A stretch of 64,000 bases of DNA from an uncultured Pseudomonadales bacterium (GCA_964393205.1 CAYMSV010000001.1:103440-167439); one strand, 5' to 3'; positions 31,885 to 49,022 are shown, counted from the first letter of the stretch. A program made the numbers and translations. Notes: a model not told the origin generated them from the letters alone.

Positions 31885-33375
31885 TAGAAAGGAGGTGATC
31901 CATCGGCACCTTCCAGTACCGATACCTTGTTACGACTTAACCCTCATCGCTAATCTCGCCGTAGAAGGGCCGTTCTCTTGCGAGTTACGGTCACCCGCTT
32001 CGGGCGCTACTAACTTTGCTGGTTTGACGGGCAGTGTGTACAAGGAGCGAGAACGTATTCACCGCAACCTGCTGATTTGCGATTACTACCGATTCCGACT
32101 TCATGCTCTCGAATTGCAGAGAACAATCTGAACTGAGGGGCCGTTTAAAGGATTGGCTCCGCCTTGCGGCTTCGCTACCCGTTGTCGGCTCCATTGTAGG
32201 ATGTGTGTTGCCCTGGATGTAAGGGTCATGCTGACTTGACGTCGTCCTCTCCTTCCTCCCTGCAAAAAGCAAGGCAGTCTCCCGTGACACTTGTAACACG
32301 GGATAAGGGTTGCGCTCGTTACCACACTTAAGTGGACGCCTCACGACACGAGCTGACGACAGCCATGCAACACCTGTGTAACACTCTCGAAGAAGATCTA
32401 GTTTCCTAGACCGTGCAGTTACATGTCAAACCCAGGTAAGGTATTTCGCTTTGTATCGAATTAAACCACATGCTCCACCGGTTGTGCGCTCCCCCGTCAA
32501 TTCCTTTGAGTTTTAACCTTGCGGTCGTAATCCCCAGGCGCCTTGCTTAACGCGTTAGCTTACATCACTCAATTCAAAGAATCAAGCAATTAGCAAGGAT
32601 CGTTTACGGTCTGGACTACAGGGGTCTCTAATCCCTTTTGCTACCCAAACTTTCGTCCCTGAGCGTCAGTTGTACTCCAGGAGCTCGCCTTCGCGAATGG
32701 TGTTCCTCTCGATATCTACGGATTTCACCCCTCCACCGAGAATTCCAGCTCCCCCTAGTAAACTCAATTCTATCAGTATTTCAACCTGTATCTGGAGTTG
32801 AGCTCCAGTATTAAAGTCAAAACTTAATAAAACGCCGACGGACGCTTTACGCCCAATAAATCCGGATAATGCTTGCACCCTACGTATTACCGAGGCTTCT
32901 GGCACGTAGTTAGCAGGTGCTTTCTAGCAGGGTACCCTCAAAAATTGTTCCCCTGCCACAGTGGTTTACACTCCGAAGAGCGTCTTCCCACACGCGGTGT
33001 CGCTGCGTCAGGCTTTCGCCCATTGCGCAATATTCCCAGTTGCTGCCACCCGTAGGTGTAGGTTCCGTGTCTCAGTAACCTTGTGGCCGGTCGTGCTCTC
33101 ACACCGGCTACCTGTCATCGGCTTGGTGAGCTATTACCTCACCAACTACCTGATAGGACATAGGCCTCTCCCTAAGCGCCCGAAGGCTTTGATCCGGAGA
33201 TCACATGCGGTATTACCCAATCTTTCGACTGGCTATTCCCCACTTAGGGGTAAGTTCCTATGTTGTACTCACCCGTCTGCTACTTGTGTTAGTCCGAAGA
33301 CTAACTTACCGTTCAACTTGCATGCTTAAAGCACACCGCCAGCATTCATCCTGAGCCAGGATCAAACTCTTAAAA
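31885..33375 (-). rRNA. rrs: 16S ribosomal RNA (complete, about 1.49 kb), not linked to 23S/5S
   Basis: Minus-strand 5' end AGAGTTTGATCCTGGCTCAG (RC at 33351-33370), 3' end AAGTCGTAACAAGGTA...GGATCACCTCCTTTCT (RC at about 31887-31936); the internal 515F site is divergent (see findings). ORFs predicted inside this interval are spurious. Confidence 0.9.
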
Positions 33376-33604
33376 AAGTTTGATTTGCTCTATAAAAAAA
33401 TAAAAGTCAAATTGACGAGATGCAATCTTTAGTTTTAAAAACCAAAGATAAAATCTCTCTTGCACTTTCTATCACTATATTTGCTGTTAAAAAAATAGCT
33501 GTCTTTACTTGTTAAAGATCAAAAAAACTTCTTTTTAAGCAAAAAAAAGAAAGGAGAAAACTTCTAGCTTTCTCTAATCATCTCTCTTTGCCTGAAGTGG
33601 GAGT

Positions 33605-37851: not shown

Positions 37852-38847
37852 ATGCAACTAACCTGCCCAAAAAAGAATATTAAGATTCTTATTTTTCTTT
37901 TAAGTTTATTTATATTTACTTTCAGTTTGAAATCGGTGGCTATCGCCCAGGAGGCTTTGTCCTTGACAGTGAAGCCGGTCAGAATTGGAGATGATAATTC
38001 TTTACTTCTAAGTCCTGGTGAAAAAAAACAAATTCAAGTGAAGGTAGAAAACAACTCTCAAATGGACTTACAAATAGAGAGTCAAGTTTTAGATTTTATT
38101 GTGGCTCAAGACGGAACAACCCCGATTCCTGTTACAGAAGAACAAGATAACCGCTGGAGTTTAGCTAGTTGGATGACTCTGGCACCAGCAAGTAATTTTT
38201 TACAAGCTGGTGGGTCAGCAACCGTTAATGTTTTAATTGAAGTGCCCGAGGATGCTCTTCCTGGGGGTCGTTATGCTATGGTGTTACACAGTCCTGATGT
38301 AGGAGGAGTTGAAGACCAAACTGGAGCTGGTATTGCTCAGCGAGCAGGTACTTTGATTTATGTGATAATTGATGGTCCAATTAATGAATTAGCCTATGTT
38401 AACTTTTTTAGAGTGCCTGGATTTTTAGAAAAAGGACCAGTGCCTATGGAAATTAAGATTAGAAACGAATCAGACGTTCACATTACACCAACCCCGCAAA
38501 TTAAAGTTTTTAACATTTTTGGTAAAGAAATAGATAGATTGGTACTAGATCAGAAAAATGTTTTTCCTTTAACCGAGCGAGATTTTAGTGATGTTTGGCA
38601 GAAAAAATGGGGTTTTGGTCCCTACACTCTTAGGTTAGAAGCTGTCTACGGATTTCAAGGACAGGTGGCAAGTGCTGAAGCAGTAATCTGGTTAATACCA
38701 GTAACAATTATTATAATTGTTTTGCTTAGTATTTTACTGATTGTGGCTATAGTTTTGGCAATTAAGAAGAAACAAAGTCAGAAGGCACCATTTAAAGAGA
38801 TGCCAGAAGCTGAAACTCAGCCAATGGATGATCAAGATCAACAATAA
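37852..38847 (+). CDS. Cell-surface protein, paralog of 35248..36291 (signal peptide + Ig-like ectodomain + C-terminal TM anchor, DUF916/DUF3324-like)
   Basis: Signal AIA|QE; LSLTVKPVRIGDDNSLLLSPGEKKQIQVKVENNSQMDLQIESQVLDF parallels the motif in the 347-aa protein; C-terminal VTIIIIVLLSILLIVAIVLAIKKKQSQK. Confidence 0.5.
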   Translation: MQLTCPKKNIKILIFLLSLFIFTFSLKSVAIAQEALSLTVKPVRIGDDNSLLLSPGEKKQIQVKVENNSQMDLQIESQVLDFIVAQDGTTPIPVTEEQDNRWSLASWMTLAPASNFLQAGGSATVNVLIEVPEDALPGGRYAMVLHSPDVGGVEDQTGAGIAQRAGTLIYVIIDGPINELAYVNFFRVPGFLEKGPVPMEIKIRNESDVHITPTPQIKVFNIFGKEIDRLVLDQKNVFPLTERDFSDVWQKKWGFGPYTLRLEAVYGFQGQVASAEAVIWLIPVTIIIIVLLSILLIVAIVLAIKKKQSQKAPFKEMPEAETQPMDDQDQQ

Positions 38848-41035
38848 AAAACGATTATTGAGATTTAAAAAAAATAAAAGCTTTCTTATTACTCATCAAT
38901 TATGTAGAAAGCTTTTATTTTTTCTTTTACTATTCTTTATATTTTCAAAAGCAAGTTTTGCGCAAACTGTAGATCCTGTAACTAGAAATGTAATAGTGTC
39001 AGCTAGTATTCCTGATACGATTCCTCCCTCAACACCAATTTTGATTACTCCAGAAGATGGAGCTAACGTTGATACGGCCCGTCCGGTTTTTCAGTGGTAT
39101 GAGAGTACAGACAATAAGGGCATGTCTCATTACGAATTTCGTCTAGATGGAAGATCTTGGTTTAACAATATTCCCCTATCTAGTTTTGCTAATGAAGATT
39201 ACAGTTTAAACTATGATGCCGGATCGGGAATTTATACTTTTGTAGCTAATCAAGATTTAAGTCATGGTACTCATCGTTGGCAAATTATTGCTTATGATCA
39301 GCTAAACAATAGTGCTGCCTCTACTATTTGGAATTTTAATGTTTTTGTTAATGAACCGCAGTTTACAATTAGGAAAATTGCGGATGTTAATACTAGTATA
39401 AGCTCCACCAATCCCTCAAGTGTTCCTGAGGAACCCATTACTCTTTTTTCAACTGATCCATTTGCTAATGAACCTTGGATTATAGCTCTAGGAGCTCCTA
39501 ATTTAGAGGTAGATTTAACAGTTATCATACCTAACAGTGCTGACCAATCTTTTAGCCAAGAGACCGATAGTAGTGGAAATTGGAGTTTACAGTTAGGTAT
39601 TTTACCTCGAGATGAGATAGTACGATTAGACTTTACTATTACTGACGTAGTTGGACACAAAAGCTATATTCGTGAGCTTTATATTATTATTAATCGGCAT
39701 TATTGGCCCCCCACCGCAATACCAACAGCGACAATTACCGAAACTCCTCCAACAACCGCTCCAACTTCTTTTATCTCTCCCAGTATTACTCCCAGTATCA
39801 CCACTTCTATTACACCAACTCAAGATCCAACTGTTACTCCGTCTATTACTCAAGCGAGCCCAGCGCCCGTAACTCCATTGCCCTCACCAGGTATTAGGGT
39901 GCCAATTATTCCACCAAAGGAAGTAGTTCATGATTTAGTTGAAGACGTTAAAAGAAGTTTGCCTGATCGAATAGCCAACTTAATGACTGATTTTAGTGGA
40001 TCGCCTATATGGAAAGCTGTAAATAATTTTTCAGCCATAGCTTTAGCTTTGCTATTGCCAATTGCCAGTTATTTGTTTGTGTTATTTAAGTTTTATCAAT
40101 CTTTTTCAATAAAAACCTTTCAAGAGGTTCTGATGGCCTTATGGCCTTGGTCTAAAAAAAGAAAAAATTTAGTATTTGAGTATCGCAATAGTCAGGCTGC
40201 TCCTTTGGTGAAAGTGGAACTAATAGACGCTGAAACGAATGAAGTTTTAGATTGGCAAATAACTAACTATTTAGGACGATTTATTAACTTTGATTGGCCG
40301 ACGGGACGTTCTCTCAAATTGAGAGTGAAAGATCATAATTTCTATTTTCCAATAGGTGGTGGTAAGCCACTTTATTTATCTTGGCACAATTTTTATCAGG
40401 GAGAAACTTTTAATTATCAAGAAGCCTCAAAAAATAAAAAAGTTGCTGCAAACATATTTGCTGGTCGACGAGCTCTAGCGATCCCTACGCTTTTGGCTCA
40501 AGGCAAACATAACCTACCCCTAATTGAGCGCCTCAGGGTTGTTTTGGCCTATTTAGTGACCTATCCAAGCTGGTTTTTTCTACTAAGTTTGTTTCCTGTG
40601 TTAATTTTAGTATTGAGGTATCCAAGCTTTTTGAATTATTTAGCACTTGTTTATTATTTTATAGTAGCATTCTTTAAACACGCTAATCGTTTAGGAAAAA
40701 AGACTTGGCAGTTTAGAGTATTAACCAGCAATGGCCACAAAGTTAATCAAAACCTAATACTTATCACTAATGATTTAATAAAAGGATATTCTCAAGCTCA
40801 AATAGTAAATATCAATGAGGCTTTGAGTCCTAAATTAAAATTTGTGAAAAATGAATTTATTTTTAGCTTACAAACAAAGGATTATGCCTTGTGGGATAGT
40901 CAGCGTGCAATTAGTGAAATGGAATATAGTCTTAGAAGAGAATCAATTGGTGAGTTTAAATTACATCTAATTGAAAGTTCTAATCACAGCCTTAGGATTT
41001 TGCAACCCCTTTGTCAATTATTGCACCAGCAATAA
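38828..41035 (+). CDS. Large envelope protein: signal peptide, FN3/Ig-like domain, Pro/Thr/Ser/Ile-rich linker, CarbopepD_reg-like beta-sandwich, C-terminal polytopic membrane domain
   Basis: Signal SFA|QT; PVFQWYESTDNKGMSHYEFRLDG (FN3-like); linker TITETPPTTAPTSFISPSITPSITTSITPTQDPTVTPSITQASPAPVTPLPSPG; LIDAETNEVLDWQITNYLGRFINFDWPTGRSLKLRV; at least 4 TM helices at C-terminus. Confidence 0.5.
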   Translation: MIKINNKKRLLRFKKNKSFLITHQLCRKLLFFLLLFFIFSKASFAQTVDPVTRNVIVSASIPDTIPPSTPILITPEDGANVDTARPVFQWYESTDNKGMSHYEFRLDGRSWFNNIPLSSFANEDYSLNYDAGSGIYTFVANQDLSHGTHRWQIIAYDQLNNSAASTIWNFNVFVNEPQFTIRKIADVNTSISSTNPSSVPEEPITLFSTDPFANEPWIIALGAPNLEVDLTVIIPNSADQSFSQETDSSGNWSLQLGILPRDEIVRLDFTITDVVGHKSYIRELYIIINRHYWPPTAIPTATITETPPTTAPTSFISPSITPSITTSITPTQDPTVTPSITQASPAPVTPLPSPGIRVPIIPPKEVVHDLVEDVKRSLPDRIANLMTDFSGSPIWKAVNNFSAIALALLLPIASYLFVLFKFYQSFSIKTFQEVLMALWPWSKKRKNLVFEYRNSQAAPLVKVELIDAETNEVLDWQITNYLGRFINFDWPTGRSLKLRVKDHNFYFPIGGGKPLYLSWHNFYQGETFNYQEASKNKKVAANIFAGRRALAIPTLLAQGKHNLPLIERLRVVLAYLVTYPSWFFLLSLFPVLILVLRYPSFLNYLALVYYFIVAFFKHANRLGKKTWQFRVLTSNGHKVNQNLILITNDLIKGYSQAQIVNINEALSPKLKFVKNEFIFSLQTKDYALWDSQRAISEMEYSLRRESIGEFKLHLIESSNHSLRILQPLCQLLHQQ

Positions 41036-42124: not shown

Positions 42125-43108
42125 TTAGAAAATAAAGTTACGTTTAGCCAAAACCTTAACTCTTTTTTGATAAGCTAATGGATCATAGGTATAAAATTTG
42201 GGTAATAGAGCTTGGTAACTTGGATTCATTTTTTGAGCTTTTGCAATATCCTCAATGGCTAATTTTCCATAATATAGGAGACTGGGATTATATTGGTGGT
42301 TTTTTAAATATTTTAAAACTTGCTCAAAACCTTCTAGGTAAACAAAGCTTTTGCTGAAGCCTCCTGGCAAACTAGTGTCTGTTAAGCCTCTTTTATTTTT
42401 TAGAGCATAAGACCAAGATTTTTGAGAATCTTGTAAATATTCGTAGAAAAAAGCGTAGACCGTTTTAAAATCTTTTTTTTGAGCTACTTGAGCGCCCAAA
42501 TAGGATAAAGCAGTTTTAAAAATCAATTGTTGTTCGCTGTTTAAATATTGATGAATAACAGCCAATCCTTCTTCGGTACGCAAATGATTGCTAAATCCAT
42601 AGTGTTTTTTACGACGGTACCAGTCTTGTTTCTCATAATTTTCTTGACGCAGGATATGGGTGCCTATTTCATGATCTAGAGTATTACTTAATTTTTGTTT
42701 AGAAAAAGCAACAGGCAATCTAACTTTAATCGTATTATTTTTGAAATTAACAGCAAATCGACTAGTAAAATCTTTATCAAAGACTAGCTGATATTTTTTA
42801 TTCAATGAATATTCAGCTAAATATTTCTCAATGATTTGAGATGTAGTTTTAGTATCTAATTTTTCATTTGATAGTTGGTTTTTTTGAAAAAGGTTTTCTT
42901 TTTTAGCCTGTTTAATAATTTTTTTAGCTAAACGAGAATAGCGCCAACGAGACCTACCATAAAAATCCAAATCGCTTTGTTTTATTGTTGTTTGATATTT
43001 AAATTGAGGGTTGTAGTTAGTATTATTGGCAAAAAATTTTTCTTTTTCTGCTAACAAATTAACTGGTACTAATTCACTAAGTTTAAGCATTTTGACTATT
43101 AGGATCAA
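42125..43108 (-). CDS. DUF1704 / QEGLA-motif protein (putative zinc metallopeptidase; 'flavohemoglobin expression-modulating QEGLA motif protein' family)
   Basis: Contains …LRTEEGLAVIHQYL… (QEGLA-like motif) and a potential metal-binding LDHEIGTH segment; 26-nt overlap with the upstream ATP-grasp gene. Confidence 0.55.
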   Translation of the reverse strand: MILIVKMLKLSELVPVNLLAEKEKFFANNTNYNPQFKYQTTIKQSDLDFYGRSRWRYSRLAKKIIKQAKKENLFQKNQLSNEKLDTKTTSQIIEKYLAEYSLNKKYQLVFDKDFTSRFAVNFKNNTIKVRLPVAFSKQKLSNTLDHEIGTHILRQENYEKQDWYRRKKHYGFSNHLRTEEGLAVIHQYLNSEQQLIFKTALSYLGAQVAQKKDFKTVYAFFYEYLQDSQKSWSYALKNKRGLTDTSLPGGFSKSFVYLEGFEQVLKYLKNHQYNPSLLYYGKLAIEDIAKAQKMNPSYQALLPKFYTYDPLAYQKRVKVLAKRNFIF

Positions 43109-44381
43109 TTAGAAAACCATCTAAATCTTGGCGGCCAAGTTCTAGCTTATGTTGACGATGATTTAGTTTCTTACTAACTAACATGGTGGTTTTAACAATG
43201 TGACCTTTTAATTTAAATTTAACTTCCACGACAGGCAAACTACCTTCTTCTTTTTCTTTTTGAAACCACAATAAATCTTCTAGGTCTAATAAACCTAGTT
43301 CACCAGCCAAATCACGAGCAATAGCACTATGAAGTCGTCCAGTATTAATAAAAGCTGAAGTGGAAATTCCTTGTTTTTTTTCACCATACAGAATAATTTC
43401 TTCTCGCAAATTAATTTTAGTAATTTCATTTTTTATTTTAACTCGATTTGAAAAATCACTGGCAAATAAAGCCTGGGCAATTTTTACTCCATGTTCGGGA
43501 TTAATGACATTTAGACCTTCTACTCTTTCTAATCGACGACGCATGCCGGCACGATTGGCAGCTTGAATTGATAATCCTGGTGTGGCATTAAGTTCAACCA
43601 CCATTGGACCTTTAGTCTTATGTAAGAAAATGTCGATTCCAGAAAAGGCCAGATCTGCGACTTCGCTGGCTTGGACGGCGGTTAATAAGGCTTTGTACCA
43701 ATTGGGAATAGTAATGCCGTTAAGCTTTTTTTTGGTTCCTGGTAAATATTGAATATTTTGTTTTTTATGAGCAACGGCATGAGTGGTAATACCACTAGCA
43801 ATATCAATTCCTACAGCAATTGCTCCCTGTGTAACATTAGCGCGACCCGCAGACTCTTCAGTAGGTAAACGTAACATGGCCATAACAGGTACACTGTTGA
43901 AAACAATAACTCTAATATCGGGTGTGCCCTTATAAGAATATTTTAATAACTTAGGATGAATTGGAATACGTTCTTCAATAATAACGTTATGATTGGTGCC
44001 GTGAATGCTATATTGTCCAGCCAAAATGTTTCTGCAATGTAATTTGATGTCGTCTTCATCCCACTTTTCTCCTAAAACATCTAACCAATACTGGCTATTA
44101 ACTTTATTTCTAAAGGCAATAACACCAGTGCCGGCATGACCATTAGTGGGTTTGATAACAAAATCACCCTCTAGTTTTTGCCAATTAAAATCATTAACGT
44201 CTTCATCGGTGCCTAAAATGCCATAGATTTCTGCAGAGGGAATATTATTGTCGTTTAATAATATTTTAGTGGCGTATTTAGAACGAGCGATAGCTTTAGC
44301 TTTACGAGAATTACGACTCACATATAAACTGTTGCGAGCATTGATGCCTAGGAGGTCGCTGGCTGTGGCTTGTTTAGTCAT
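43083..44381 (-). CDS. ATP-grasp ligase, RimK-like ('alpha-L-glutamate ligase-related protein' family)
   Basis: ATP-grasp elements (…FVIKPTNGHAGTGV…, …RLPTEESAGRANVTQGAIAVGID…, …MVVELNATPGLS…); 432 aa with extra C-terminal domain. Confidence 0.6.
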   Translation of the reverse strand: MTKQATASDLLGINARNSLYVSRNSRKAKAIARSKYATKILLNDNNIPSAEIYGILGTDEDVNDFNWQKLEGDFVIKPTNGHAGTGVIAFRNKVNSQYWLDVLGEKWDEDDIKLHCRNILAGQYSIHGTNHNVIIEERIPIHPKLLKYSYKGTPDIRVIVFNSVPVMAMLRLPTEESAGRANVTQGAIAVGIDIASGITTHAVAHKKQNIQYLPGTKKKLNGITIPNWYKALLTAVQASEVADLAFSGIDIFLHKTKGPMVVELNATPGLSIQAANRAGMRRRLERVEGLNVINPEHGVKIAQALFASDFSNRVKIKNEITKINLREEIILYGEKKQGISTSAFINTGRLHSAIARDLAGELGLLDLEDLLWFQKEKEEGSLPVVEVKFKLKGHIVKTTMLVSKKLNHRQHKLELGRQDLDGFLIDPNSQNA

Positions 44382-44393
44382 AGTTGACTTTTC

Positions 44394-45440
44394 TTATTCT
44401 TCTAGTCCTGAAAAATCATCAGTCATAAATTTTTTAAATTTTTGGGACTGACTTTTGTTACTAAGCAAGTCTTTGAAGCGAAAATATTCAAAGATTCTTA
44501 GTCCGGTGTAGCGACCGATAGCTAGATTAATCACTGTTACCAGTAGAATGGTTAATTCAGGTTTTAAAATAACAAATTTCCTGACGGTTTCATTATCTAC
44601 CAACAAAGTACCAACAATTGCCAATATCAATGTTTCAAAAGTTACGCTGAGAGCCTCTCCTCTGCTAGCAAACATTTGAGTGGTCATAAAGTTCTCAGTA
44701 AGCAAAATAATAATAAGCAATGGGAAGATGCTTACATTAAGCACTAAATCAATTTTGAATAAAGAACCAATAATCAATAAAAATAATATTGACATCGAGA
44801 CAATGAGTAGGAGCATAGCTGTTTTTGGCAAGAGTGGCATTTTTAAAAACTTTACTAGATATCTAGCTAAAGTTGCTGATAAAAGTACAGCTAAAAACAA
44901 AATAATGCCCGCTAGTAGACCAGTAGATACAAAAGCTACTGATAAAACTGCTGGAATATAAATACCAAAACCTTTAAAACCAATTACATGTCTAGCTAAG
45001 GCTACAATTGAAGCAATGACTGGAAAAATTAGCATAATTACTACTAAGCTAGTTGGTAAACCTTGAGCAACAGCAAGACGAATAGCTTTTTGTAGAAAAT
45101 TAGTTGGACTAAGTGGACCAATAGGATTTTCATCTAAATGTGCTGCTAAAACACTTTTTTGTCTGCCCGTAGTTTCAGTAATGTCTTCGTCAGTTTTTTG
45201 TTGAATTTTTTCTACTATTTCTGCTGATGGCGAGGATAATTTAACACTATCGCTTGCCTCTGCTTCTTCAGTTGCCTCTTCAATTACTTCTAAATTTTCT
45301 AGATCTTCTCCTTCAAATTGAATGGGATTAATGGTTTGAGCGTAAATTTTTTGCTGTTTTAGATTTGGCCAAAAAGCCAGAACAAGAAAGGCAAAAATAA
45401 AAATCAATAAATAAGTGGGTAAGATTTTTTTAAAATTCAT
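44394..45440 (-). CDS. Signal peptide + periplasmic segment + about 7 TM helices membrane protein (7TM family that is usually fused to an inactive transglutaminase)
   Basis: N-terminal signal, acidic about 100-aa extracytoplasmic region, then 6-7 TM helices; immediately upstream of ATP-grasp/DUF1704 pair. Confidence 0.4.
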   Translation of the reverse strand: MNFKKILPTYLLIFIFAFLVLAFWPNLKQQKIYAQTINPIQFEGEDLENLEVIEEATEEAEASDSVKLSSPSAEIVEKIQQKTDEDITETTGRQKSVLAAHLDENPIGPLSPTNFLQKAIRLAVAQGLPTSLVVIMLIFPVIASIVALARHVIGFKGFGIYIPAVLSVAFVSTGLLAGIILFLAVLLSATLARYLVKFLKMPLLPKTAMLLLIVSMSILFLLIIGSLFKIDLVLNVSIFPLLIIILLTENFMTTQMFASRGEALSVTFETLILAIVGTLLVDNETVRKFVILKPELTILLVTVINLAIGRYTGLRIFEYFRFKDLLSNKSQSQKFKKFMTDDFSGLEE

Positions 45441-45459: not shown

Positions 45460-45822
45460 TTATAAGATGAAATTAATAGTTCTTTGACAAAAACTAATTA
45501 GACTGGAAACTAAAAGTAGACTAAAAAATTGATTTAGGCGTAAACCAAAGACAATCATTGGGGCAATATTAAAGCCTGGTACAAAATAAGTAGCCAGCCA
45601 AAGGATAAAAACACTAATAACCATAGAAAATAAGCCAAGAGTGACAATATTAATAGGTAAAAAAAGAAGTTTTAAAATTGGTTTAATAATTTTTTCAAGG
45701 ATAGTCAGGACGATAGCGGCTAAAATAAGAGTAAAATAGCTACTATAGCCAACATTAGGTAAAGCCCAGGCTAAAATAGCAATGGTGGCGATTAATACAA
45801 TAACTGGCTTAAGTATTTTCAT
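45460..45822 (-). CDS. Small 4-TM membrane protein, DUF360/'phage holin family 4'-like
   Basis: 120 aa, four hydrophobic helices, …ATYFVPGFNIAPMIVFGL… resembles the VPGF motif of PF04020 proteins. Confidence 0.45.
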   Translation of the reverse strand: MKILKPVIVLIATIAILAWALPNVGYSSYFTLILAAIVLTILEKIIKPILKLLFLPINIVTLGLFSMVISVFILWLATYFVPGFNIAPMIVFGLRLNQFFSLLLVSSLISFCQRTINFIL

Positions 45823-45853: not shown

Positions 45854-47245
45854 TTATTGTAAAAGATTTTGCTCTCTTAGTCTAGTATGCTGCTTTTTGG
45901 CGAAACGATGGGCCTCATCTCTTAAACGAACAACTAGGTGAAGAGTTGGATGGTTGCTGGGCAACTTGATTTCAATGCTTCGCCACCCGTTATTGGGTTT
46001 TTCTTGATTTTTTGGACGAAGTAAAACTAACCGATCTGGATTTTTAACTACAGATACAATTGGACAATTGAAAAATTGAGGATTTTTTTGCCAAACACGC
46101 TGAGCACTGCGCAACTGTCCTTTACCTCCATCAATGACTATTAAATCTGGTCTACCCCACTCTGGGTGTTTTTGCCTGCGCAATAGTGCTTCTTGCAACA
46201 TAGCATAGTCGTTAGGAGTGGCCTGTTGACGAATTTTAAAGAATTTATACTCACTTTTTTCAGGCTGGCCATCAATAAAACAAACCATGGAAACAGTAGC
46301 TTGTTGTCCTTGAGTATTGCTAACATCATAAGCTTCTATGCGTTGAAAACGATATTTTAAATCAACTATGCCCTGCTGATGCATAATTTGGCGCAAGTGC
46401 ACCAATGCCTCTTCTTGGATTTTCTTGGTTAAATTGGGCAAGATTAAATCAGGTTTTAAACGATACTGTTCTTGAGTAATTTCATTAATTAAATCAATTT
46501 TATTTTTAATTTTTTGTGCTTCTTCAAAATTTTCAGATTTTGCCAAGTTTTTCATTTCTTGAGTCAATTGTTTAATCAAATTTTTATTTTGACCACGAAG
46601 AAGTAATATTAGTTGTTTAATATTATCTTGGTAAGATGATGAATCAATTTTATTGCAACAAGCTCCAGGACAAAGCTCTAGATGATAATAAAGGCAAGCT
46701 TTATTTTCTTTTTTGTTTTTTTTATTACACCAGGGAAAGATTTGTCTAGCTATTTTTAATAATTCATCAACTTTATAACTACTAGCAAAAGGACCTAAAA
46801 TGGCCATGGATTTTTGAAACTGTTTCTTTTTTAAATCAGTTTTTCGCAGTCGTAATAATTTTGGATAATCTTCTTGAGTAAAAAAAAGATAAAGTCGAGA
46901 TTTATCGTCTTTGAGTAGACTGTTGTAAAAAGGTTGATGAGCTCTAATTAATTCTGCCTCAATCAGCAGAGCTTGAAGTTCGCTTTTTAGAATCTGAGTT
47001 CTGACTGTCTTGGCCTTTTTGACTAATTGTTGGATCTTGGCTGAGAGCTGAGGATAGCGAGTGTAACTCTTGATCCTTTTCTTCAAGTTTTTGGCTTTGC
47101 CGACGTAAAGTACTTGTGAGTCTGCGTCCAAAAAGGAATAAACTCCCGGCTGCGAGGGCAAGGACGACAAGTCCTGCGCCCAGGAAAAGTATTTTTTCTG
47201 GGTTTTCAACAGTGATTTTTCCGAACCCTTTGACTTCGACTTCAT
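45854..47245 (-). CDS. uvrC: Excinuclease ABC subunit C, shortened (GIY-YIG + UvrBC-interaction + endonuclease domains; C-terminal (HhH)2 domain absent)
   Basis: PGVYSFLDADSQVLYVGKAKNLKKRIKSY (GIY-YIG), Cys-rich segment, FEEAQKIKNKI (UVR domain), RIEAYDVSNTQGQQATVSMVCF and VIDGGKGQL (RNase H-like endonuclease), ends RLRDEAHRFA…; start codon uncertain because of the overlap with the upstream gene. Confidence 0.8.
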   Translation of the reverse strand: MKSKSKGSEKSLLKTQKKYFSWAQDLSSLPSQPGVYSFLDADSQVLYVGKAKNLKKRIKSYTRYPQLSAKIQQLVKKAKTVRTQILKSELQALLIEAELIRAHQPFYNSLLKDDKSRLYLFFTQEDYPKLLRLRKTDLKKKQFQKSMAILGPFASSYKVDELLKIARQIFPWCNKKNKKENKACLYYHLELCPGACCNKIDSSSYQDNIKQLILLLRGQNKNLIKQLTQEMKNLAKSENFEEAQKIKNKIDLINEITQEQYRLKPDLILPNLTKKIQEEALVHLRQIMHQQGIVDLKYRFQRIEAYDVSNTQGQQATVSMVCFIDGQPEKSEYKFFKIRQQATPNDYAMLQEALLRRQKHPEWGRPDLIVIDGGKGQLRSAQRVWQKNPQFFNCPIVSVVKNPDRLVLLRPKNQEKPNNGWRSIEIKLPSNHPTLHLVVRLRDEAHRFAKKQHTRLREQNLLQ

Positions 47246-49022
47246 GATTAAAAATTTCTCCTTTTTGTAATTGAATGTTGAGGTTTAATTTTGATTTCTT
47301 GCTAATCAAACCATCTTTATTATAAACGCTTAAAGGAATTTCTAAATTTTGAAAAGGAACAATTAAGTTTGGCCAGTCTTCTTCTTGACTAACAATTAGC
47401 TCATCACTGTCAAAAGTAAATTTAGCAAAATACCAAACTTGTCCTGTTGGATTGCTAAGAACTAAAGAATATTTTCCAGGAATATCAAAGTTTAATAGTT
47501 GTTGTTCTTTTAACTCAATATTAATTTCTGGCTGAATGTTTGGAAAATCATTCTGACTAAATTCAACATAGATCTTTTTTTCTTGAGCTTCTTTTTCGCT
47601 TAAATAAGAACCCGCTGGGTAAGGCAAAACACTAGAAACACCATTGATTGCGAAAGTAATATGATTGAGATCGAATTTAGAAAAATAATCAATTCCACCA
47701 GTGGTATTTTGCCAGGTTGGATCAATTTCTTGCCAGCTATTGTTTTCAAAGTTATAAAAGGCTGGCCAAGCATGTAATACATCACCAACCACACTAATTG
47801 GTCTCAATTCTTCATTACTACTATAAGCATAACCAACAATTCTTTTAGCTGGAATTTGTTTAATCCTCGCCAAGGTAACAAATAGATCTGTAAATTCTTG
47901 ACAGGTGGCAAAAATTCTATTTTCTGGTAAGAAGCTATTAGCAGCGCCTAGGCGATAAAATTGTGCGTTCAAATTTTCTTCTGTATATTCAAGATTTTCT
48001 ACTACAAACTGATTAATATCACTAGCACTATTTAATGTCGAAGCGGCTTCTTTTAAATCTGGGCTATCTATTTCCCAAAATTTTTGAGCAGTGAGGTGAG
48101 CTGGTAAAACTGGAGCTGGTTTGATACCAGAATCTGCCTCTAGTCTTAATAAAATTTGGGCTAAAAGCTCAACTTTAAAAGAATTATTGGCTGGAATTTC
48201 ATAGGTAGCTATAAAATTACCATCAAGATCTACTTTAATATTTTTCGGTAAAGGATCTAATTGGTGATAGTGAATTTTTTGTTTAGGGGTTTCAGGAGGT
48301 AAAGTGATCTGAGTAAGAGCGTTTTGACTATTTGGATTATCCAAATAATAACTCAGTTTCAGATCAAAAACTTGTTCTTCACCAAAGATGGCGCTAACTG
48401 CTTGTCCCTCAAGTTTGTCATAATGAAAAGTATCAAAATCTCCAGCTTGTTTAATAGTAAAATCACTGGGACTAATTCGATTGGCAGGACCAAAAATATT
48501 TGGTATTACTAAATTTAGTCGGTATTGATCATATTGCTCTGGATCTGCTAAAGCAGGAATGTTAACTTCTAAAATTTTACCGCTAATGTTAGCAATATCA
48601 CTATCAAGGTAGCTAATAATTAATTCTCGACTTTTTCCTTCTCCCAGTATTTGTTCTTCGAAGGTAACACCAATGCTGGTTTGGCCTGTCAATTTACTAA
48701 CTTGCGGTTCCAATGGAGTTCCATTATCAGTAACTTTAATGTTCTCTAGGTTGGTAGAACTGACAATAATTCCGTATCTATTAATAAAATATTCAGGAGT
48801 GAGATTGCGTATGGTAAATTTTTGAGTTACTAAAGTTTTTCCATTAGCATTGACTCGATAAGTGCTGTCTAGATTGATAGTGAAGTTTTTATCTTCATCA
48901 GTTGCAGAGATTGGTTTAGTAAATAGATGGTTGCTAAAAAGAACAGTTAAAAAAAATAAGCTGATCAAAAACAGAAATCTTTTTTTGGAGATTATTCTAC
49001 TAAATAATTTACTAATAGACAT
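46959..49022 (-). CDS. Transglutaminase-like (Cys-His-Asp papain-fold) domain membrane protein with N-terminal signal/TM and C-terminal TM anchor
   Basis: Core …FATCQEFTDLFVTLARIKQIPAKRIVGYAYS…VLHAWPAFYNFENNSWQEIDPTW… (catalytic C, H, D in TGase-like spacing); C-terminal TM and S/Q-rich tail are encoded out of frame over the uvrC 5' region. Confidence 0.6.
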   Translation of the reverse strand: MSISKLFSRIISKKRFLFLISLFFLTVLFSNHLFTKPISATDEDKNFTINLDSTYRVNANGKTLVTQKFTIRNLTPEYFINRYGIIVSSTNLENIKVTDNGTPLEPQVSKLTGQTSIGVTFEEQILGEGKSRELIISYLDSDIANISGKILEVNIPALADPEQYDQYRLNLVIPNIFGPANRISPSDFTIKQAGDFDTFHYDKLEGQAVSAIFGEEQVFDLKLSYYLDNPNSQNALTQITLPPETPKQKIHYHQLDPLPKNIKVDLDGNFIATYEIPANNSFKVELLAQILLRLEADSGIKPAPVLPAHLTAQKFWEIDSPDLKEAASTLNSASDINQFVVENLEYTEENLNAQFYRLGAANSFLPENRIFATCQEFTDLFVTLARIKQIPAKRIVGYAYSSNEELRPISVVGDVLHAWPAFYNFENNSWQEIDPTWQNTTGGIDYFSKFDLNHITFAINGVSSVLPYPAGSYLSEKEAQEKKIYVEFSQNDFPNIQPEINIELKEQQLLNFDIPGKYSLVLSNPTGQVWYFAKFTFDSDELIVSQEEDWPNLIVPFQNLEIPLSVYNKDGLISKKSKLNLNIQLQKGEIFNHEVEVKGFGKITVENPEKILFLGAGLVVLALAAGSLFLFGRRLTSTLRRQSQKLEEKDQELHSLSSALSQDPTISQKGQDSQNSDSKKRTSSSAD

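Follow-up and report, generated by a model that had tools for sequence, protein, structure and literature searches.

A three-gene operon, which fills positions 42125-45440 on the minus strand of a 64,000-nucleotide stretch of DNA (the window) recorded as an uncultured Pseudomonadales bacterium (GCA_964393205.1 CAYMSV010000001.1:103440-167439), encodes a seven-transmembrane (7TM) protein, an ATP-grasp ligase and a predicted metallocarboxypeptidase of the MATCAP family. We read it, with a probability of roughly 0.45, as a variant, found in Patescibacteria, of the poly-glutamate tail systems typified by RimK/RimB and RloABC, in which glutamate would be added to an acidic C-terminus and removed again by MATCAP-type trimming. 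That the module ligates and trims had been suggested in an initial annotation made from the sequence alone, and this appears to be the best-supported reading, judging from the active sites of the families, their known biochemistry and the pattern across species. Two features were missing from that annotation, namely a retropepsin-fold domain fused to the ligase and an -EE C-terminus on the 7TM protein; the apparent replacement of a retropepsin by a MATCAP enzyme, together with the -EE tail, lifts the module beyond an ordinary family assignment.

Established directly were the families and motifs of the proteins, the fold of the domain fused to the ligase, in which the catalytic Asp has been lost, the organisation of the operon and the pattern across species. 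Open reading frame (ORF) calling on the window placed three genes in the same direction, in the 5' to 3' order 7TM (44394-45440), ATP-grasp ligase (43083-44381) and MATCAP-like (42125-43090), with mnmA immediately downstream. The junctions measure 12 nt between the 7TM and ligase genes, -8 nt between the ligase and MATCAP-like genes, where start and stop overlap, and 2 nt between the MATCAP-like gene and mnmA; the genes are tightly packed, and the ligase and MATCAP-like genes are translationally coupled. All three family assignments of the initial annotation hold at the Pfam level (PF08014, a PF14397-type ATP-grasp close to TIGR02291, and PF14402), while at the TIGRFAM level the best curated models are indeed related but no protein reaches the NCBIfam cut-offs for TIGR02421, TIGR02291 or RloB, so that the three proteins are relatives, not equivalogs. 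No Rfam family was found within 42125-45440, a 93-aa plus-strand ORF inside the 7TM gene had no support, and promoter and terminator scans gave nothing informative.

With the ligase alignment, a scan that took one genome for each species yielded 561 relatives, and the best 80 loci, all from Patescibacteria, were scanned with hidden Markov models (HMMs) built from homologues of the module; 77 of these loci were scorable. The record titles of many such metagenome-assembled genomes ("uncultured Pseudomonadales" or "uncultured Gammaproteobacteria", with one "Verrucomicrobiota" and one "TM6") look wrong given their Patescibacteria-type synteny. This co-occurrence analysis, which the initial annotation had proposed, placed the 7TM gene directly before the ligase gene in 80/80 loci and the MATCAP gene after the ligase gene in 51 of the 77 scorable ones, leaving 26 without it. 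The adjacency of the three genes is not due to chance, and we treat the 7TM-ligase pair as the ancient core and MATCAP as a clade-specific addition.

The distribution of MATCAP follows the state of the retropepsin-fold domain fused to the ligase. That domain keeps the motif AK[IVM]DTGA in 19 loci, none of which has MATCAP (0/19), while the 51 MATCAP-positive loci are all without an intact DTG (51/51), 49 of them carrying N, K or H in place of the catalytic residue and 2 carrying DTK. Intact DTG and MATCAP presence are therefore mutually exclusive (Fisher p = 2e-10, uncorrected for phylogeny). Seven MATCAP-negative loci also have a dead fused domain, and in three of them (L026, L027 and L041) the next gene after the ligase encodes a stand-alone retropepsin of 119-143 aa with the motif AK[IV]DTGA; mnmA comes next (directly in L041, after one extra ATP-grasp gene in L027), just as it comes after MATCAP in the window. 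Taken together, the MATCAP/DTG pattern and the stand-alone retropepsins in the MATCAP slot imply that an active peptidase almost always accompanies the ligase, which seems to depend on such a partner. From these sequence patterns, the MATCAP-like protein looks like a non-orthologous replacement of a polyglutamate-cleaving retropepsin, and the stand-alone retropepsins are a hint that supports the replacement independently.

The same loci bear on the idea that the genes are held together by lineage synteny without a shared function, the MATCAP-like protein being a general cytoplasmic carboxypeptidase. Gene order is conservative in these small genomes, and the whole block from uvrA through a transglutaminase-core gene, uvrC, a PF04020 gene, 7TM, ligase and MATCAP to mnmA is syntenic in many relatives. 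Nevertheless, we regard this explanation as very improbable, since the MATCAP-like gene shares an 8-nt start/stop overlap with the ligase gene, the trio stays intact where the upstream genes differ (TrxB, Gdh and DsbA-like genes in L066, L072 and L085), the presence of MATCAP is the inverse of an intact catalytic Asp in the fused domain, and an active-type retropepsin fills the MATCAP slot in three loci.

The ligase (43083-44381, minus strand, 432 aa) consists of two parts. Its core (residues 1-295; 43497-44381, minus strand) is RloC/TIGR02291-like, the score of 252.1 bits on TIGR02291 lying under the cut-off of 314.2 yet being the best curated match; the RimK motif region aligns, although the protein is only distantly RimK-like (57 bits to TIGR00768). 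Identity over the core ranges from 58 to 100% across 120 homologues. The remaining ~137 residues (296-432; 43086-43496, minus strand), which go beyond the ~315 aa typical of TIGR02291 proteins, are conserved in all 120 closest homologues. An AlphaFold2 model of this extension is beta-rich (predicted local distance difference test score, pLDDT, 80.5), and its best Foldseek match in the PDB is RloA of P. fluorescens (9g58_A; E 7e-6, probability 1.0), followed by the DUF785 protein 2pma and RloA2 9g59 (TM-scores ~0.5 for both) and by Ddi1/retroviral protease (RVP) domains. The retropepsin domain could be found only in this way, by structure prediction and Foldseek, and through its DTG-type orthologues: a Pfam scan of the extension (E up to 10) gave no retropepsin match, a profile search of PDB sequences gave only chance homeobox matches, and hhalign of the domain alignment against a single Legionella RloA gave a weak match (E 0.034), while the collinear domains of DTG-type orthologues scored 28-40 bits on PF05618 in five of the six tested and 25.7 in the sixth (cut-off 27).

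In an alignment of 81 orthologues, N346 of the window motif INTGR occupies the column of the D in the AKIDTGA of other lineages, so that N-T-G (43338-43346, minus strand) stands in place of the catalytic D-T-G. Because of this change from Asp to Asn, and because the D48N variant of RloA is catalytically inactive (PMC12239564), the fused domain is presumably proteolytically dead. Its retention in a non-catalytic role has a precedent, as RimB binds RimK and stimulates its ATPase and polyglutamate synthesis, and an active RimB-RimK hybrid with the domains in the reverse order is known (PMC11957791).

The third gene was called as an ORF at 42125-43108, which is real as the 327-aa protein of the initial annotation, but the true start is likely the ATG at 43090, giving 321 aa (42125-43090, minus strand), the usual length among the 120 closest homologues. 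The family formerly called DUF1704, to which the protein had been assigned, is now named MATCAP (PF08014), and the window protein scores 87.4 bits on it (gathering cut-off 27; E 1.2e-24). It missed the cut-off of TIGR02421 (89.2 bits against 338.65) and carries the motif EEGLA, not QEGLA. A phmmer alignment with the solved core of human MATCAP (7z5g) runs end to end, over residues 6-299 (E 2.9e-37), and BLASTP against human MATCAP gives 31% identity and 136 bits. Both motifs reported earlier could be located on the minus strand: HEIGTH, the HExxxH zinc and catalytic motif (42656-42673), aligns with human H-E281-IGTH, and EEGLA, the putative third metal ligand (42560-42574), aligns with human TEEGLA, a reading that is shared with animal MATCAP, unlike QEGLA. 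Across 121 aligned sequences, H140, E141, T144, H145, E173, E174 and G175 are invariant (121/121) and L176 and A177 are conserved at 98-99%. No signal peptide was found in the MATCAP-like protein. It consists of the catalytic core only, a bare 321 aa without the microtubule-binding extensions, compared with animal relatives of 430-1070 aa in which the core lies at ~140-500.

The 7TM protein (44394-45440, minus strand, 348 aa) has a RloB-like PF14402 core. It scores 89 bits on PF14402, 7TM_transglut, over residues 134-325 (cut-off 25), and 65 bits on the RloB model NF052267 (cut-off 900), of which only the C-terminal half, profile positions 314-507, matches. The N-terminal region of 130 residues (45051-45440, minus strand) has at residues 6-24 a hydrophobic segment, either signal or anchor, and after it an acidic and poorly ordered part (19 D/E against 9 K/R over the region; pLDDT <50 at residues 51-71), and is predicted to be extracellular. 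A Pfam scan of these ~130 residues returned no domain and no transglutaminase signal, in agreement with the claim that the 7TM component is not fused to a transglutaminase. It is followed by the seven-helix transmembrane core (residues 131-314; 44499-45050, minus strand), which was delimited by a hydropathy scan and the AlphaFold2 helices (pLDDT 85-92), and by a predicted cytoplasmic tail, RIFEYFRF...DDFSGLEE (44397-44498, minus strand), whose final -EE lies at 44397-44402. The tail has 7 K/R, which fits the positive-inside rule. Its cytoplasmic location follows from the acidic outside N-terminus and seven helices, from the K/R-rich tail and from a Halobacterium fusion of 7TM and ligase described below, and the tail is thus predicted to lie in the same compartment as the ligase and as the MATCAP-like protein, which has no signal peptide.

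An -EE end is found in 101 of the 120 closest 7TM homologues, although the tails before it differ in length and sequence (GLEE, SQEEE, PEQEE, IIEEEE, ETPEE), and the 7TM protein is the sole one ending in -EE among 46 long ORFs of the window. At the level of species, 35 of the 51 MATCAP-positive loci have -EE, against 3 of the 26 MATCAP-negative ones (p = 2e-6, uncorrected for shared ancestry). The tail therefore looks like a candidate for acceptor or docking site. The stricter idea that -EE is required for the module was rejected in favour of enrichment, as 7TM proteins without -EE (L005-L007) keep both ligase and MATCAP. Nine MATCAP-positive loci have an extra RimK-like ATP-grasp gene or two beside MATCAP (L005, 10217-12078; L006, 10279-11262; L028, L032, L033, L036, L039, L042 and L085), and seven of the nine have non-EE tails; speculatively, these extra enzymes may be priming or alternative ligases.

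We propose that the cytoplasmic RloC-like ATP-grasp enzyme would catalyse the ATP-dependent addition of amino acids, most likely alpha-linked glutamate, to a free acidic C-terminus. The dead retropepsin-like domain would have been kept to bind the acidic tail or to activate the ligase, comparable to RimB with RimK, and the MATCAP-type zinc carboxypeptidase would take over the hydrolysis, trimming the added residues singly from the C-terminus. The 7TM protein would be an obligate membrane partner, its own cytoplasmic -EE end being the best candidate for the acceptor or at least for the docking site, and the length of the tail would tune the role of the 7TM protein in envelope or osmotic homeostasis. 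The amino acid added, the acceptor, the exopeptidase activity and the physiological role are predicted here from the known biochemistry of the families.

Three known systems share parts of this scheme. The likeness to the rloABC operon, which was described in Pseudomonas aeruginosa and P. fluorescens (Lormand et al., mBio 2025, PMC12239564), lies in a RloC-like ATP-grasp gene right after a PF14402 7TM gene, in the presence of a RloA/DUF785-fold retropepsin in the system, and in a likely poly-glutamate chemistry. RloA cuts stretches of 8 or more Glu, and deletion of rloB or rloC suppresses the deletion of rloA1-3 (PMC12239564), so that the function of the cluster, called unknown in the initial annotation, is no longer wholly so; for RloC, too, the ATP-dependent ligation of glutamate is a putative activity (PMC12239564). 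The window module differs in that (i) its 7TM protein is without the periplasmic inactive transglutaminase domain, (ii) its retropepsin is fused to the ligase C-terminus, cytoplasmic and without the catalytic Asp, (iii) it adds a MATCAP-type metallocarboxypeptidase gene, (iv) its 7TM protein ends in -EE, whereas the RloB proteins of Legionella and Aeromonas end in ...KARS and ...GKDK and have a separate RloA-type retropepsin gene as partner, and (v) its proteins stay below the NCBIfam cut-offs.

RimK/RimB likewise combines an ATP-grasp alpha-L-glutamate ligase and a retropepsin, the latter binding to the ligase, stimulating it and taking off glutamate tails. E. coli S6 presumably ends in -EE, like the window 7TM protein. 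RimK glutamylates the C-terminus of S6/RpsF, RimB cleaves polyglutamate, and ligase-retropepsin fusions (RimBK) exist (PMC11957791). The retropepsin of RimBK is N-terminal and active, while that of the window is C-terminal and presumed dead; moreover, the window ligase is distantly RimK-like, its membrane partner appears obligatory and its trimmer is a predicted zinc exopeptidase.

The third likeness is to the animal enzymes MATCAP1 and MATCAP2 (TMCP1/2, KIAA0895L/KIAA0895), which have the same catalytic core with HExxxH and EEGLA. Detyrosinated alpha-tubulin ends in -EE, and the ATP-grasp enzyme TTL re-tyrosinates it. In animals, a ligase of the ATP-grasp type (TTL/TTLL) thus works against a MATCAP carboxypeptidase on an -EE tail, as is proposed for the window. 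From the acidic tails of tubulin, MATCAP/TMCP enzymes take off C-terminal Tyr and Glu, and they also shorten polyglutamate chains (PMC10499314). The window protein has no microtubule-binding extension, its partner ligase is RloC/RimK-like and not TTL-like, and its presumed substrate is a membrane protein tail or polyglutamate, not tubulin.

Several observations weigh against the tail-trimming proposal. The correlations rest on a few large clades, and hence on few independent evolutionary events, and four loci with VNTKR (no Asp and no Gly) in the fused domain (L046, L048, L049 and L051) have neither MATCAP nor a stand-alone retropepsin within 5-7 kb, which makes them exceptions to the rule of an accompanying active peptidase. 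Three MATCAP-negative loci with an intact fused DTG carry -EEE or -KEE tails, and 16 of the 51 MATCAP-positive loci have no -EE (for example ...NKKYD, ...IINNK and ...IITT), so that the encoded tail cannot be an obligatory acceptor. In addition, an unannotated 584-aa ORF on the Halobacterium sp. DL1 plasmid CP007061 (L093, 5185-6939) joins the C-terminus of a PF14402-like 7TM protein to the N-terminus of a RloC-like ATP-grasp enzyme. In this archaeal "Rosetta stone", which unites both core components in one protein, the 7TM C-terminus is no free acceptor.

The last two of these points fit an alternative that we consider the main rival, possible but on the whole unlikely, in which the ligase would polymerise free glutamate (or another amino acid) and the 7TM protein would export the product, the MATCAP-like protein limiting or recycling it in the cytoplasm and the -EE end being no acceptor but a pseudo-substrate or docking motif by which the dead domain and ligase are tethered to the membrane protein, a tether that the Halobacterium fusion would make covalent. 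Such a synthase and exporter agrees with the rlo genetics as well as with the archaeal fusion: RimK makes free poly-alpha-Glu, for which RimB is needed (PMC11957791), and the RloA peptidase is secreted in Pseudomonas (PMC12239564), so that the product of RloBC must reach the periplasm. However, the 7TM model resembles no known transporter; its search against solved folds returned nothing significant (best RnfE/NqrD, E 0.3-0.5), a lack of informative matches that also counts against the tail-trimming proposal and so does not help in choosing between the two. A cytoplasmic exopeptidase in an export operon would furthermore oppose export, and the enrichment of -EE where the peptidase is a predicted C-terminal exopeptidase better fits a C-terminal substrate.

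A further point against a glutamate-tail system is that the best Pfam match of the ligase is PF14397 ("sugar-transfer associated ATP-grasp", 200 bits), a family predicted for surface-polysaccharide synthesis. This would suit a tailoring of envelope glycan or peptidoglycan, in which a sugar- or lipid-linked precursor is amidated, or given an amino acid, by the ATP-grasp enzyme and handled by the 7TM protein, while the MATCAP-like protein trims stem peptides, and it could be set beside the cell-shape and ampicillin phenotypes of rlo mutants (PMC12239564) and the nearby genes for a transglutaminase-core membrane protein and for secreted or surface proteins. We hold envelope tailoring to be improbable, as the closest curated model of the ligase is the RimK-related TIGR02291 (252 bits), the fused domain belongs to the polyglutamate-cleaving RloA/RimB fold family, the operon has no glycosyltransferase or Mur-type genes, and the transglutaminase neighbour is a matter of lineage synteny, being missing from L066, L072 and L085.

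The initial annotation had grouped QEGLA, glutamate ligase-related and 7TM proteins as one TIGRFAM cluster. Comparison with Proteobacteria, which like that with archaea drew only a handful of loci from a plasmid collection, showed that this is correct for TIGR02291 and the 7TM protein, which do pair, but that the true QEGLA proteins of the loci examined pair elsewhere, so that the trio as named looks conflated. In an Aeromonas record and on a plasmid of Legionella, TIGR02291 and an inactive-transglutaminase 7TM protein form rloABC with a retropepsin peptidase, both in the order 7TM then TIGR02291, as in the window. The true TIGR02421 QEGLA ("flavohemoglobin expression-modulating") proteins examined, from Photobacterium (460 bits) and Aminobacter (354 bits), are 620-660 aa long, and both adjoin a GshB-like ATP-grasp (PRK12458), with no TIGR02291 or 7TM protein beside them (two loci); in Aminobacter an N-formylglutamate amidohydrolase is also adjacent. 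The QEGLA proteins of these loci (L008, 6148-9892; L010, 6062-9056) have an uncharacterised N-terminal extension of 250-300 aa. The window protein resembles them in belonging to PF08014 and in being encoded beside an ATP-grasp ligase, and differs from them, having only 21% identity to a true QEGLA protein (54 bits, 22% gaps), in the long N-terminal extension, the QEGLA motif, the GshB-like partner and the lack of a 7TM protein on their side. QEGLA with a GshB-like ligase is a second, distinct module of ligase plus MATCAP-family protein, and the window module thus mixes two themes known from Proteobacteria without copying either.

A HMMER search over 1.84 billion cluster representatives found 1542 relatives of the MATCAP-like protein at E<=1e-3, 87 of them at E<=1e-30. 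The top ~55 are mostly short forms (~310-335 aa), and next in rank come long proteins named MATCAP1, MATCAP2 or KIAA0895(L) from echinoderms, amphibians and marsupials (125-138 bits), so that animal MATCAPs are, in this search, the nearest relatives outside the short Patescibacteria-type forms. The window protein is far closer to human MATCAP (136 bits) than to proteobacterial QEGLA (54 bits). Among eukaryotes the distribution of TMCP homologues is patchy (PMC10499314), as would fit a horizontal acquisition. One could go further and see in the module a bacterial counterpart of the tubulin tail code, in which the ligase and MATCAP would reversibly change the length of the 7TM -EE end and so switch the 7TM protein, the animal and alveolate MATCAPs having come from a Patescibacteria-type core by horizontal transfer; this bolder version we consider doubtful.

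In Pseudomonas, rloABC affects osmotic tolerance, biofilm and antibiotic sensitivity (PMC12239564), and the window module offers a simple proposal for its substrate and chemistry, namely an -EE peptide acted upon by one ligase and one exopeptidase. If the tail-code reading is true, the tail of the membrane partner or a polyglutamate product would name the missing class of rloABC substrate. The module also gives the MATCAP family a bacterial functional context and, as it holds the nearest relatives of the animal enzymes in our search, bears on the origin of the tubulin detyrosinase and deglutamylase. Finally, it looks like a case of non-orthologous replacement, in which a dead fused retropepsin appears to have given way to a zinc carboxypeptidase or, in a few genomes, to a new stand-alone retropepsin, a pattern in which comparative genomics predicts a shared substrate chemistry.

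Two genes upstream of the operon were considered as members of the module and rejected, being the synteny of one clade only. The first (45460-45822, minus strand) encodes a 120-aa protein with four transmembrane segments, a member of PF04020 ("phage holin 4_2"); it is separated from the 7TM gene by 19 nt, and is found directly upstream in ~47 of the 56 scorable loci of its clade and absent elsewhere. The second, two genes upstream of the 7TM gene (46959-49022, minus strand), encodes a membrane-anchored transglutaminase-core protein (PF01841, 687 aa) with an apparently intact Cys/His/Asp triad (ATCQEF...HAWP...EIDP), and co-occurs only inside the MATCAP-bearing clade, which probably reflects lineage synteny. 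Both are regarded as neighbours only, because they are absent from L066, L072 and L085 and from every locus that keeps DTG. The transglutaminase-core gene and uvrC share 287 nt (46959-47245, both on the minus strand), where the 3' end of the former and the 5' end of the latter are read in different frames, the overlapped part of uvrC containing what appears by eye to be the GIY-YIG motif region. In L001 the low-complexity C-terminal tail of the transglutaminase protein is conserved and uvrC is called from a later start (380 aa, no GIY-YIG match); either the overlap is genuinely long or one start is miscalled.

Convergent with the operon, two large secreted or membrane proteins are encoded at 37852-41035 on the plus strand, one of them with a Pro/Thr-rich linker and multiple C-terminal transmembrane segments; in L001 and L003 the module has the same pair downstream of it, and neither protein has a family match on record. 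The window also contains a complete 16S rRNA gene (31888-33377, minus strand), with no 23S or 5S gene inside the window. Two ORF entries that lie within this gene (31991-32344 and 32961-33329) are spurious, and the GC content of 0.446 at the 16S gene, against ~0.34 elsewhere, is explained by the rRNA.

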